Source: a candidate division FCPU426 bacterium
GTDB lineage: Bacteria; Oederibacteriota; JAAXVQ01; JAUVAV01
Direction of reading: 5' to 3'
DNA length: 50,020 nt
Assembly: GCA_030637655.1 (NCBI GenBank)
Contig: DAOWGI010000040.1
Span: 1 to 50,020, forward strand
A model generated the notes under the pieces. It was not told the origin of the DNA. It saw only the letters and a program-made list of their open reading frames with translations, and did not search any database. The position numbers and the translations under genes are program-made. Each line of letters starts with the position of its first letter. Position 1 is the first letter of the stretch. Shown in pieces: positions 61-37,469 of this stretch.

Positions 61-2943
61 TTAATTTGAGAGAATATCAGACACTCGTTGAGCGACTTGC
101 TCATCTGTAATTTGAGGTCTAATATCAATTCTGCTTAATTTTGGATTTTCCTCCAAAATATCTAGTATTTGGACTAGTTCCCGCAAAACAGGCCGAGGTA
201 CCCGGGTTATTGTTTCGCTGCGCGCGGTTGTGCATTGTCCGAGTTGCTCGTCTATCTCTGCATCCGGCATTCTGGCTTTTGCATCCCACTTATAGGCAAC
301 GCCGTGAATATCACGAACACGAGATACTACGTTCTTTAGTTTATCCTTATTTAATCCTTCTAATTCCACGACTGGTTGTTTAAACGATTTAACTGATATA
401 TTATCCATTGGCGATAATACTCTATTTGCCAAAGCCTCATAGCTAGGCAATCCTGCTCTTTCGTCCTCAAAAAATGAATCTGTGCCAGTAAATATTATTA
501 AACAACTGGGGAGTTCATTTTTCCCTACTTCATCAATAAGTAGTCGTAATGTCTCATATGCCTGTTCTCTGGATTTTTGATGAGGATAACGTCTAATAAG
601 TTCTACTTCATCCACTAACAAAACAAACCCACGATATCTTGCACCGGCAATAACTTTCAACAAAGCCCGGAGCCTGGAAAACACAGTGTTTGGTTCCAAC
701 ACCCCCTTAACTCCAATTGATTTTAGGGCATTACTAGATAGTGAATGACTACCACTTAGCCAAGAAATAGCATTTACTGCCGTTGATAAATCCCCCGCCA
801 AGCGAGCCCGATAAAATGCCCTTACCGCTGGTGCAAAACTCGGATCAAGACTTGCTATGGTTTCTAATTCTTCCTCAACTCTTTGTTCAACTAATTCACC
901 TAATTCATCAACCTTACAACTATTACCGATTTCGACCCCTTCTATCTTTGCTGTTTTCCGGTGTATTCCCAGCAACCAGCTTTCTAAAATATCCGCCAAA
1001 GCATTTCCATCGCGTTTTTCCGGTGTTCTAATACCTTGCACTAATCCGGCAAAAAACACTGGTAAGTCCGACAATGGTTGATTTGGTCCAATCACAATAT
1101 TTGATACTATTAAATCTTTTTCAAGTGTCTGTTCCTTCAACCAGGAACAGACAAAACTTTTACCTGCCCCATAAGGTCCTCGAATAAATTTAAAAAAGCA
1201 TTTCCCTCGGGCCGTCTCCTCAATCAATTCGCTAAAATGTTTTCTAATTGTTGTCTGTCCAACCGCCAAGTATTCTAAATTTTTACCGGGAACAACACCT
1301 TGTCTGATTGCATCGACAATATTTCTGGCAATTTTGCGAGATAAGCCATCTGAGTTAAACCCTTGAGAACCTAACCATTCATAAATATTAATGCTATGAA
1401 GACTTTTAATCCCCAATGGGTTTCTACCTGACTTATTAAGTTTTGCTATCATGTCAGTCATATGGGCTTTTGTTAGAAACCATCCAAGTTTATGTCTCTT
1501 ACTGGCCCTTTCAACATCTCTTTCTGTTAATGATTTGGCATCTTTTAGTAAAGCAAGTATTATTAATTCGTCTTTATCTAAAAATGGATATTCTTTTTCT
1601 AAATCATCAATTCCCAAAGGCATCTTCGCGACATTTTCCGACACCAAATCTTCCACTTTCGGAAGTGATATTTTCTCATCAGCCTTGTCACTATACGTTT
1701 CTTCTTCTTCTATTTCTGCTCTTGCAAGAACTTCCTGAGACGCAACTTTCACCTCTTCTATGATCCGATCTATTTTTTCTGTTTTTAACCCTGATACTTT
1801 CACATCCAGCTTGCTACATAATTGATATAAGTCACTTCCGCGAAGGCGACCAAGTATATTTCTATCTGACCAGTTAGAAACTAATAACCTTTTTATTTTC
1901 TCCTCTTTTGAACCACTTGTTTTCAAATAACATCCTGATAAAATGTCCTGAAGCTGATTATTTGACAGATGCTCAAGTACATGCTTAAAATCCTCGCAGC
2001 TCATTTCCCTTTCTTCTTGCGCTTCCGGCTGTACAGTCTCATTTTCTTCTGTCACTTTTTCTAAATCTCTTTTCTGATCAAAATAATCAACAATATTTCC
2101 AATTCTTTCGAATTTATTTCCGCTCACTTTTATCTCATTTTTCGAGCAAAAACTGCTTAATTCATCAATTGTCATTAAATCCAATAATTCTTTTGGCGGA
2201 ACAAGCCCTTTTATAATTCGAACCAACTTATCATCTTTACTCCCTGATACAACTAGCCCTAGGCTTTGGCAATATCTATACAATTGATCATTTGTTAATG
2301 CGTCTAAAATTCGACGGTAATCTATATCATCTATATCCATATCCCAAGCACGGCGAATTTGCCAAACTACTTCTTCACCAATCAAAAAATTATTATCTAT
2401 CGACAATACTAACCCAGATGACAGAAGTCGATTTCTTGCTTCAACATAACCTTTATCACTTCCCAATATGGATCTCACTTCAGTATGATACTCAAGCAAA
2501 AGATGTTCTCGCGTCCAAATACCTAATTGTTCCCGCAACACCTGAAGAATCCTTCCTTCGCTTTCATCTATCTTACTGTCATTCTTCCAAGCAGATACAA
2601 GCATTTTAAGATAAAGTTCGTAGTTTTTATTCCCCGATAGACCTTTCCCACTATCTGCCATTGCAACTAGTTCGTGAACAAGCTGAAAAACATGATCCCG
2701 AAAACCTTCCACCGGATGGCAATACCCCTCTGAATCTAACAAAACCTTCAAAATTGCGTACGTAGGAGGTTTTGATGTATTTAGCTTTGATCCAATATAA
2801 CTTAACGACGATAGAGCTGATATTACCTCCTGCTGGACAATATTTCTCGGCAGCCTTAGCGAAGCTGACTCATCCATTTTGTCGCCGGCAATTTGATCGA
2901 TTACCGAATCGGAGTGTTTATTTAGAATTTCAAACAATTTCAT
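61..2943 (-). CDS. Fusion protein: TerB-like segment, four SAP-like repeats and a C-terminal BrxD/DUF2791-family P-loop ATPase (putative anti-phage)
   Basis: Walker A GPYGAGKS, Walker B FVLLVDEVE, DAIRQGVVP..LAVG and GLPSYEALANR motifs. Repeats of type LTNDQLYRYCQSLGLVVSGSKDDKLVRII. TerB-like AWKNDSKIDESEGRILQVLREQLGI. Start moved to ATG 2943 (GGAG RBS). Confidence 0.75.
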   Translation of the reverse strand: MKLFEILNKHSDSVIDQIAGDKMDESASLRLPRNIVQQEVISALSSLSYIGSKLNTSKPPTYAILKVLLDSEGYCHPVEGFRDHVFQLVHELVAMADSGKGLSGNKNYELYLKMLVSAWKNDSKIDESEGRILQVLREQLGIWTREHLLLEYHTEVRSILGSDKGYVEARNRLLSSGLVLSIDNNFLIGEEVVWQIRRAWDMDIDDIDYRRILDALTNDQLYRYCQSLGLVVSGSKDDKLVRIIKGLVPPKELLDLMTIDELSSFCSKNEIKVSGNKFERIGNIVDYFDQKRDLEKVTEENETVQPEAQEEREMSCEDFKHVLEHLSNNQLQDILSGCYLKTSGSKEEKIKRLLVSNWSDRNILGRLRGSDLYQLCSKLDVKVSGLKTEKIDRIIEEVKVASQEVLARAEIEEEETYSDKADEKISLPKVEDLVSENVAKMPLGIDDLEKEYPFLDKDELIILALLKDAKSLTERDVERASKRHKLGWFLTKAHMTDMIAKLNKSGRNPLGIKSLHSINIYEWLGSQGFNSDGLSRKIARNIVDAIRQGVVPGKNLEYLAVGQTTIRKHFSELIEETARGKCFFKFIRGPYGAGKSFVCSWLKEQTLEKDLIVSNIVIGPNQPLSDLPVFFAGLVQGIRTPEKRDGNALADILESWLLGIHRKTAKIEGVEIGNSCKVDELGELVEQRVEEELETIASLDPSFAPAVRAFYRARLAGDLSTAVNAISWLSGSHSLSSNALKSIGVKGVLEPNTVFSRLRALLKVIAGARYRGFVLLVDEVELIRRYPHQKSREQAYETLRLLIDEVGKNELPSCLIIFTGTDSFFEDERAGLPSYEALANRVLSPMDNISVKSFKQPVVELEGLNKDKLKNVVSRVRDIHGVAYKWDAKARMPDAEIDEQLGQCTTARSETITRVPRPVLRELVQILDILEENPKLSRIDIRPQITDEQVAQRVSDILSN

Positions 2944-9792: not shown

Positions 9793-9930
9793 GTAGCATG
9801 TCAGTGAACTGCGGTTAAACAAAGGTTGTCATTCCCGAATGCTTGTATCGGGAATCCGGTTTTTTAAACCATATCCCCGATACAAGCATTCGGGGATGAC
9901 AGGGTGAGGGCTTCATTCGGGGATGACAAC
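9793..9930 (+). mobile_element. MITE family A, copy 1 (left TIR plus GTCATTCCCG REP doublet; right TIR absent)
   Basis: Starts GTAGCATGTCAGTGAACTGCGGTTAAACAAAGGTTGTCATTCCCG, near-identical to the copies at 18.3 kb and 37.2 kb; contains an internal inverted pair. Confidence 0.8.
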
Positions 9931-18274: not shown

Positions 18275-18421
18275 CGTTTTTTTGTTTGTCATTCCTGAAG
18301 GCAGCCCCCACCCTGTCATCCCCGAATGCTTGTATCGGGGATACGGTTTAAAAAACCAGATTCCCGATTAAACCCTCGGGAATGACAACCTTTGTTTAAT
18401 CGCAGTTCACTGACATGTTAC
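18275..18421 (-). mobile_element. MITE family A, copy 2 (one TIR plus REP doublet), between MFP and RND genes
   Basis: Reverse complement reads GTAACATGTCAGTGAACTGCGATTAAACAAAGGTTGTCATTCCCGAGGGTTTAATCGGGAATCTGG... Confidence 0.82.
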
Positions 18422-37215: not shown

Positions 37216-37469
37216 ATAACATGTCAGTGAACTGCGGTTAAACAAAGGTTGTCATTCCCCGACCGGAAAAATATCGAAAAGGGACGCTAACGCAGCCCCG
37301 ACCGGTAAAGATATATAGGGACGTCTTTCGACAGCCCGAGGGTTTAATCGGCCCCGACCGGAAAAGATATATAGGGACGCATTCAGCAGGAATCTGGTTT
37401 TTTAAACCGTATCCCCGATAAGATCATTCGGGGATGACAAACAAAAAAAACGCATGACTGACATGTTAC
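37216..37469 (+). mobile_element. MITE family A, copy 4: complete, 254 bp, with three nested 38-39 bp inserts
   Basis: Ends ATAACATGTCAGT / ACTGACATGTTAC; 8-bp TSD ATCCGTAC (37208-37215) / ATCCGTAT (37470-37477); backbone matches the 18.3 kb copy. Confidence 0.9.
37257..37389 (+). repeat. Three direct-repeat units CCCCGACCGG-N-AGGGACG-N-CAG (37257-37295, 37296-37334, 37352-37389)
   Basis: Read directly from the sequence; absent from the other MITE copies in the window. Confidence 0.88.

Follow-up and report, generated by a model that had tools for sequence, protein, structure and literature searches.

The window considered here is a stretch of 50,020 nucleotides from a candidate division FCPU426 bacterium (contig DAOWGI010000040.1 of assembly GCA_030637655.1, positions 1 to 50,020 of the forward strand), and at 37251-37397 it holds a hairpin repeat whose two arms are each interrupted by short sequences, hereafter units U1, U2 and U3. 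The question raised by this locus is how such units came to lie so exactly inside another repeat. The evidence assembled below indicates that they probably belong to an insertion family that is or was mobile in some form, and that several independent site-specific events occurred, whatever their exact number. Their most likely mover is a Y1 HUH enzyme of the TIRYT type acting in trans, a statement that in its entirety is offered tentatively, as we judge it somewhat more apt to fail than to stand. The source genome (G000; C-numbers denote its contigs) is a metagenome-assembled genome (MAG) of 120 contigs and 3.28 Mb. The modules of the locus, in order, and the empty copy with which they are compared, are as follows (a caret marks a junction here and throughout).

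37251 to 37256, forward strand: left foot GTCATT of an NTS/SRM-type hairpin; the left insertion site follows its final T.
37257 to 37295, forward strand: unit U1, CCCCGACCGGAAAAATATCGAAAAGGGACGCTAACGCAG, 39 bases, of the left-site subtype, with spacer AAAAATATCGAAAA and tail CTAACGCAG.
37296 to 37334, forward strand: unit U2, CCCCGACCGGTAAAGATATATAGGGACGTCTTTCGACAG, 39 bases, head-to-tail with U1 (CAG^CCCC), with tail TCTTTCGACAG.
37335 to 37351, forward strand: inner stem-loop CCCGAGGGTTTAATCGG, intact; the commonest inner variant, with 35 empty and 16 right-filled copies.
37352 to 37389, forward strand: unit U3, CCCCGACCGGAAAAGATATATAGGGACGCATTCAGCAG, 38 bases, of the right-site subtype, with spacer AAAAGATATATA and tail CATTCAGCAG.
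37390 to 37397, forward strand: right foot GAATCTGG of the hairpin.
18359 to 18386, reverse strand: empty copy of the same hairpin, GTCATTCCCGAGGGTTTAATCGGGAATC.

A preliminary description of the locus had proposed three elements of about 39 bp, set without target duplication into both arms of a hairpin, whose deletion would restore the copy at 18.3 kb, and each of these points is borne out. The units measure 39, 39 and 38 bases and share one orientation, and the reverse complement of 18359-18389 reads as an uninterrupted GTCATTCCCGAGGGTTTAATCGGGAATCTGG, identical to the window hairpin once U1-U3 are removed. Taken singly, the junctions may be shifted by 3 bases (CCC) at the left site and by 1 base (G) at the right; CCCC...CAG are the sole boundaries consistent with both sites, and thus a target duplication of more than 1 base is incompatible with the two taken together. 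The host had been called a REP (repetitive extragenic palindromic) hairpin. A hairpin repeat it is, but the restored sequence, tGTCATTCCCGAGGGTTTAATCGGGAATCTGG, matches the definition of an NTS, CGTCATTCCCG-loop-CGGGAATCYRG, as given by Chenal et al. (2025, PMC11893778), and the host is therefore an NTS/SRM hairpin (CGTC-tagged and Ssn-related) inside a shell resembling a MITE (miniature inverted-repeat transposable element), not a plain REP. Such hairpins are assigned to the CGTC-tagged REP superfamily in Di Nocera et al. (2013, PMC3733652). Neither subtype nor pairing is private to the window, as the U1 subtype occupies the same site on C8, C43, C40, C72, C11 and C1, and the U1+U2 pair has an identical copy at C8:41386-41463.

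The units are members of a family of non-coding sequences of 36-50 bases, each comprised of a 5' head CCCC[G/A]A[C/T]CGG, an AT-rich variable spacer, a GGGAC core and a 3' end in ...CAG. The motif CCCCGACCGG N8-16 AGGGACG occurs 47 times in G000 and 0 times as a reversed control, so it is not a product of chance; a strict regular expression recovers 46 units, and an nhmmer profile returns 104 matches at E up to 10, 72 of them at E<1e-3. A genome-wide family with fixed ends, as predicted beforehand, is thus present, and its motif is likewise abundant in relatives and appears on two metagenome contigs. G000 contains 98 NTS-type hairpins, of which 56 are empty and 42 hold units: 32 at the right site only, 4 at the left only, 3 at both, and 3 with units but without the inner stem-loop, which is absent from these copies, with the gap falling exactly on the same two borders. 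The right site is accordingly occupied in 35 of the 98. Throughout, insertion is at the two junctions GTCATT^... and ...CGG^GAATC, and the order of modules (left units, inner stem-loop, right unit) and the orientation never vary. Removal of the units yields a sequence identical to an existing empty copy in 33 of the 42 filled hairpins; a further 6 restore to a variant without an identical empty copy, and the remaining 3 are those devoid of the stem-loop. Units also occur in head-to-tail pairs and at several stand-alone sites, and six copies (5 after GTCATT and 1 after ATCATT) are followed by CCGGCAT....

Whether the variable segment of 7-8 nucleotides near the unit end matches the target had been raised as a point to check. 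The segment does vary, but its variation tracks the insertion site: the tail CT[AG][AG]YGCAG is found in 8 of the 10 units that come first at the left site, and C[CAT]TTC[GAT]GCAG in all 35 units at the right. No convincing complementarity between segment and target was found. One candidate guide, a partial complementarity noticed by eye between the U1 tail and CTGCGGTTAA in the upstream shell, was set aside as chance, since copies with other upstream sequence keep the same tail.

That the filled sites reflect more than one insertion is seen at the right site. The right-filled hairpins form 4 clusters whose flanks are unrelated, with 8 inner variants, and one identical 38-mer is present in 3 of the 4 clusters. 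Hairpins sharing this 38-mer have only feet of 6 and 8 bases in common, too little for gene conversion, and the presence of the same unit amid unrelated flanks therefore calls for several independent site-specific insertions. On a tree of 81 host copies, built on 121 columns after the units were removed, occupancy requires 17 changes at the right site and 9 at the left; 51 of its 77 branches are unresolved, and the well-supported branches force at least 6 right and at least 4 left changes. In one pair of identical hosts, the left unit is the sole difference. The copy patterns have surely been shaped as well by amplification of the host and by recombination between unit heads of 10 bases.

Insertion at a fixed internal point extends to a second target. 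A structured sister class of 20 units, bearing the head CCCC[G/A]A[C/T]CGG, the tail GGGAYTYCCTTCGGTY and an end in ...TTCGGTY, resides inside GTAG...CTAC double-foot REP hairpins at one fixed central point. The REP GTAGGGAACGGTCGCGACCGTTCCCTAC exists in empty form at 46 loci (92 matches with both strands counted), and 8 copies hold an intact sister-class unit exactly at GGTC^...^GCGACC. Eight further composites have a second REP inside the AT-rich spacer of the unit, a nesting of REP, unit and REP in which the inner REP splits the spacer at about the same point every time. In folding, the composites surpass shuffled sequence by a wide margin (z -3.2 to -4.1). The three-level nests, each with a complete inner REP, lie at the following positions.

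C44:446
C47:18365
C55:19623
C64:43762
C66:21168
C96:14474
C98:40719
C98:61392

Among REPs of this kind, a run of five copies of the left half (GTAGGGAACGGTCGCG) followed by one complete REP was also observed at C63:45425-45516.

The distribution of units beyond G000 was examined in the 11 genomes of its family, G000 included, with the looser pattern CCCCRAYCGG N8-24 RGGGAY. Counts are 66 in G000, 89 in G005, 49 in G008 and 0-5 in each of the other eight, with controls giving 0-4. G005 and G008 represent a sister genus of G000, and most of their units form homogeneous, spacer-less tandem arrays (12 x 42, 12 x 45 and 21 x 44-45 bases, among others), the long ones comprising 12-21 units with a period of 42-45. 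The arrays are intergenic and, as judged by eye from the flanking proteins, lie between unrelated housekeeping genes; none of the G005 and G008 arrays examined is linked to a conserved neighbour gene. Two orthologous sites within this genus, one upstream of rsmG and the other downstream of a sigma-54 activator, carry an array in only one of the two species compared, the second having no unit there. A hairpin spanning the junction between units (GGGAC-stem-AGCCCC) was considered and rejected, as the arrays and the U1/U2 junction gave z of +0.2 to +2.5 against shuffles.

Two details of the arrays may be recorded on their own account. At G005 loci L156 and L186-L190 and G008 locus L164, arrays of 4-21 units each have a private variant, and the last unit ends in GCTG in place of GCAG. 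At G005:C13:427309-427846 (L191), four unit-like sequences lie 126 or 252 bases apart within an open frame of 741 codons, which is either a protein carrying the repeat in frame or a spurious frame.

NTS hairpins have a different distribution: 89 in G001, 20 in G003, 10 in G007, 6 in G010 and 5 in G002, with none found in G005, G008, G004 or G009. Only G000 combines many hairpins with many units, and only there are the two nested. Two metagenome contigs with other flanks carry an NTS hairpin with a right-site unit. At the metagenome locus L126 (about 700-830, reverse strand), a right-site unit of 36 bases in an NTS hairpin is followed by a further insert, with a CACCCCGG..CCGGGG hairpin of its own, before the GAATC foot, and this junction of unit and CCGGCAT recurs six times in G000. 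When the expression given in the preliminary description was run over one genome per species, the matches listed were chance-like only, nearly all from GC-rich genomes and without a unit-like AT-rich spacer.

The units carry no gene, and any enzyme that moves them would hence have to be supplied in trans. In the mechanism proposed here, a Y1 HUH transposase of the TIRYT type would cut and rejoin single-strand DNA at the unit ends (CAG^CCCC), and the freed unit would be joined into sites whose sequence imitates such an end. One such mimic may be the inner stem-loop, starting with CCCGA and ending with TCGG where a unit starts with CCCCGA and a right-site unit ends in ...TTCGGCAG; because its borders resemble unit ends, a new unit would land just before or just after the stem-loop, as it would beside another unit. 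Loss of the stem-loop at these same borders, as in the three copies described above, would be an expected product of an enzyme that cuts at unit ends. Later shaping might then have come from local amplification, either by slippage or by rolling-circle replication, from spread of the host repeat, and from recombination between unit heads. The most complete version of this proposal, namely an 'ends-only', hairpin-free single-strand DNA transposon of about 38 bases, moved in trans by TIRYT, directed by end mimicry and multiplied into arrays by a rolling circle, strikes us as rather unlikely.

Candidate enzymes are at hand. G000 encodes an intact TIRYT at C82:7650-8666 (339 amino acids, with Y1_Tnp and a DnaA-C-like helix-turn-helix domain) and a RAYT on C87 (214 amino acids). 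TIRYT proteins constitute subclass 2.1 of TnpA-REP, for which Quentin et al. (2018, PMC6006769) report no REP-like sequences close by; these enzymes have no known cognate small repeat, and the present family may possibly reveal their missing substrates. Almost every Y1 match in G005, where arrays are most abundant, is a frame of TIRYT length, and no short RAYT-type frame was found there. In relatives, the TIRYT homologues have flanking inverted repeats that start GGGGACG..., TIRtron ends in the family start with GGGGACG..TTCGG, and the dispersed repeat families of relatives (GGGACGTWGTTCGGTAATACGG) match the left end of the G000 TIRtron. There is a resemblance between these ends and the unit core, GGGACG-NN(N)-TTCGG. 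Compared with an end of the C100/G007 type, U2 attains a score reached by 0 of 2000 shuffles; the likeness is weaker for the common right-site unit (about 0.01-0.02 of shuffles) and for one sister-class unit (about 0.03). Of the motif GGGGWSAS, only GGGAC is matched, the units having AGGGACGC and the sister class GGGAYTYC. One decayed TIRYT gene begins 150 bases 3' of a unit and a partial unit. The RAYT gene on C87 has a single diverged unit-like sequence about 340 bases upstream and no flanking inverted copies. Of the earlier suggestion that an HUH enzyme or a reverse transcriptase acts in trans, the former part is plausible for a Y1 enzyme, given the weak motif likeness and the one adjacency; no support was found for the latter.

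Several observations on the TIRYT genes themselves may be added. Decayed genes lie at C100:48200-48600, with a left end nearly identical to that of the intact TIRtron of G007 (L021), and at C14:868-1245, where the HUH region is lost. On the 5' side of the intact gene, at C82:7400-7650 (L010 1330-1400), there are two direct repeats of TTCCGGGACGTTGA and a third, degenerate copy, and an inverted CGCGTCCCG lies on its 3' side.

Several observations count against a TIRYT enzyme as the mover. Genes flanked by the motif, which the preliminary description had led one to look for, were not found in any REPtron-like arrangement. The intact TIRYT of G000 lies 4.4 kb from the nearest unit, and by comparison of positions none of the 17 TIRYT matches in G005 and G008 is near a listed unit. 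All 10 family relatives possess TIRYT genes, while units are abundant in only 2. Most of the 35 pairs of unit and TIRtron end compared are no better than shuffles (fraction 0.05-0.4), and the similarity is short. Known Y1 transposases read hairpins, yet the window units have none, the folding of U1-U3 giving z of +0.8, +1.6 and +1.1 against shuffles. The left flanks of units (...CATT, ...TCGG, ...GGTC, ...GCAG and others) have no tetranucleotide in common, unlike the targets of IS200/IS605. Logan contigs of four sequencing runs from three studies, when compared with the locus, allowed neither a locus-specific presence/absence polymorphism nor a circular junction to be read, the joints listed deriving from other copies. 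The poor resolution of the host tree is to be counted here as well.

Perhaps the most serious competitor to enzyme-driven movement is a history of few old insertions without current mobility, in which host MITE/NTS amplification, gene conversion, slippage and deletion between the 10-base heads produced the present copies and the arrays are minisatellite expansions; as a complete account we consider it unlikely. In keeping with such a history, the module order is invariant with the window copy as its fullest form, unit subtype follows the site, the host tree is weakly resolved, the arrays are internally homogeneous as local expansion predicts, and the state nested in NTS hairpins is limited to one lineage of the 11 genomes. 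The forms without the inner hairpin (A'-A, and A alone) could in principle arise by recombination between the CCCCGACCGG heads, although the four-C junction observed in them is fitted better by a cut at the unit border than by microhomology. Against it, the microhomology of 1 base at the right site means that slippage can neither create nor remove a unit there, and the identical 38-mer amid unrelated flanks and differing inner sequences is beyond the reach of gene conversion through such short feet. Units moreover occupy at least six unrelated types of context, and even this history would need its original site-specific insertions.

The observed cuts and joins might instead be the work of a different machine than TIRYT, be it an IS110 enzyme with its guide RNA, a tyrosine recombinase acting on a small circle, or whatever process disperses NTS/CGTC hairpins (it is linked to Ssn single-strand nucleases of the GIY-YIG type), a unit being copied into the break during repair. 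This we hold to be distinctly unlikely. G000 does possess one IS110-family gene, three reverse transcriptase matches and four small Ssn-like GIY-YIG frames (71-103 amino acids), no TnpB match being found in that genome. IS110-family elements target REPs, and the targets of the window units are exactly NTS/CGTC hairpins. For these repeats, no transposase is known according to Di Nocera et al. (2013, PMC3733652). An IS110 event, however, repeats a core of 2 bases at both junctions, and the right junctions, TCGG^CCCC and GCAG^GAAT, share 1 base, so a core of that type does not fit. SsnA of Neisseria meningitidis, as described in PMC11893778, cleaves upstream of the hairpin and not in its stem, and the unit sites are thus not the known Ssn cut site; nor does a unit adjoin the Ssn-like genes in the three regions inspected. 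The junctions also have no conserved triplet of the integron type.

A further alternative treats the unit as a selected cis-element whose spread is secondary, namely a site for a protein bound to double-stranded DNA (for example, the DnaA-like domain of TIRYT) or an unstructured RNA motif in operon transcripts, and we regard it as very improbable. Conservation lends it some substance, for the CCCCGACCGG and GGGAC boxes are kept across genera with a variable spacer between them, as does orientation: all 11 arrays examined in G005 and G008 have a co-oriented adjacent gene, 8 of them lying between same-strand genes, and for the sister class, flanking proxy genes run in the same direction in a ratio of 27:13 (p=0.04), with the G-rich strand favoured 15:4 (p=0.02). 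Units of class A in G000 are unbiased, however, with respect to both proxy genes (54:62) and GC skew (50:41), and the strand biases, absent in class A and weak in the sister class, are too weak to support a mechanism tied to the replication fork. Rfam 15 has no matching family, the best unit match in the window, to cow-rumen-1, scoring 15.1 bits where the gathering score is 53.4 (E 2.2), with no family on 8 sister-class loci or on 8 loci of relatives, arrays included. Arrays and units fold worse than shuffles, arrays are absent at orthologous sites of sister species, and the flanking genes are unrelated. A function also does not explain exact insertion inside other selfish repeats.

That the units are an artefact of assembly, of adapters or of contamination is a practically negligible prospect, because the GTCATT^U1 and U3^GAATC junctions recur in Logan contigs of all four runs from the three studies, the 72 units are spread over many contigs of G000, and relatives of the units are present in other genomes and on metagenome contigs, which effectively disposes of this reading for the family, though not for the exact 2+1 arrangement at the window locus. 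At that locus, contigs with unique flanks end at 37246 and restart at 37440, with depth between them raised more than 10-fold, and no contig of the four runs spans the repeat from one unique flank to the other; for the placement of U1+U2 and U3 on one molecule, the MAG assembly is the sole basis.

Among known systems, the closest parallels include the REP and REPIN elements with their RAYT (TnpA-REP) Y1 proteins (Bertels and Rainey 2011, PMC3116915; Quentin et al. 2018, PMC6006769), which are similarly very short, gene-less, high in copy number, free of target duplication and found in ordered tandem clusters, with a Y1 HUH enzyme thought to move them in trans. The sister-class units even reside within double-foot GTAG REPs. 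The window units differ from these elements in being non-palindromic, with ends CCCC.../...CAG and no GTAG or CGTC tag, in lacking inverted doublets and a flanked RAYT gene, and in occupying fixed internal sites of other repeats. With TIRtrons and their TIRYT proteins (Di Nocera et al. 2013, PMC3733652; subclass 2.1 of Quentin et al.), the likeness is in the TIRYT gene with its DnaA-C-like domain in G000, in a unit core like the terminal inverted repeats (TIRs) of relatives, GGGGACG..TTCGG, and in the small TIR-derived repeats that relatives contain; the motif GGGGWSAS of PMC3733652 is only partly matched by the units. No more than 14-16 TIR-like bases occur in a unit, in one orientation and without an inverted pair, and CCCC...CAG are not TIR ends.

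Other families of short repeats offer partial parallels. The small dispersed repeats (SDRs) of the Nostocales, reportedly described by Elhai and colleagues in 2008 as 'very small mobile repeated elements' of 21-27 bases, are likewise under 100 bases, insertion-like, nested in repeats and without target duplication or an identified enzyme, but they belong to another phylum, have another sequence and are shorter; neither tandem arrays of 12-21 units nor two fixed sites in NTS hairpins are known to have been described for SDRs. IS200/IS605 elements and their miniature derivatives (PATEs) require a subterminal hairpin at each end and insert on the 3' side of a fixed tetra- or pentanucleotide. The units share with them strand and orientation specificity, the absence of duplication and the involvement of single-strand hairpin DNA, whereas neither end hairpins nor a fixed left flank were found for the units. 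Classical DDE MITEs differ from the units, which have no inverted ends and no duplication beyond 1 base, although the outer shell does have an inverted repeat of 12 bases. The unit arrays differ from those of CRISPR or type III toxin-antitoxin systems in being spacer-less and in their housekeeping surroundings. In the dRS3-flanked mosaic elements of Neisseria (NIMEs), hairpins are interleaved with other short repeats; the units of G000 lie inside the hairpin, parting its feet from its stem, and not between hairpins. The resemblance to the NTS/Ssn motifs of PMC11893778 consists in a host hairpin that fits the pattern and in the presence of small GIY-YIG Ssn-like genes.

On this comparison, we rate the units as a family of very small non-autonomous repeats not previously described in the literature searched. 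A search of full text for the motif strings returned only primers and unrelated sequences, the supplementary lists of TIR families in PMC3733652 and PMC6006769 lying outside that search. The spread of very short bacterial repeats, namely REPs, CGTC/NTS hairpins and TIR repeats, is still largely inferred, and this family makes clean material on the process, in that filled and empty sites are exactly delimited at each of three targets, with defined points of cutting and joining (CAG^CCCC, ATT^CCCG, CGG^GAAT and GGTC^GCGA) and a natural contrast among genomes that contain arrays only, hairpins only, or both. Because the insertions split the palindrome needed by Ssn nucleases, they may also alter how the NTS sites of G000 are read. 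Should the 'ends-only' account prove true, the units would rank with the smallest known mobile DNAs and would provide exact substrates for testing the spread of REP-like repeats.

The remaining features of the window concern the shell and a further hairpin.

37217 to 37468, forward strand: MITE-like shell bearing the hairpins, 252 bases, the three units accounting for 116.
37217 to 37228 and 37457 to 37468: terminal inverted repeat of the shell, 12 bases, TAACATGTCAGT and ACTGACATGTTA, as read from the sequence.
37410 to 37438, forward strand: second shell hairpin, uninterrupted, ATCCCCGA..TCGGGGATGAC.
9828 to 9856, forward strand: another empty NTS-type hairpin with a different loop, GTCATTCCCGAATGCTTGTATCGGGAATC.

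A hairpin of the type of the second shell hairpin contains a sister-class unit within its loop at C37:6920. The weak Rfam match to cow-rumen-1 covers the head and spacer of a unit at 37231-37282, where the matched consensus CCGCCGGACACGAUCGAAGAGG is loosely like CCGACCGGAAAAAUAUCGAAAAGG, and is probably due to chance. At 37443, on the 3' side of the second hairpin, many Logan contigs from all four runs differ by 1 base in the length of an A-run, which most likely reflects divergence among copies of the repeat.

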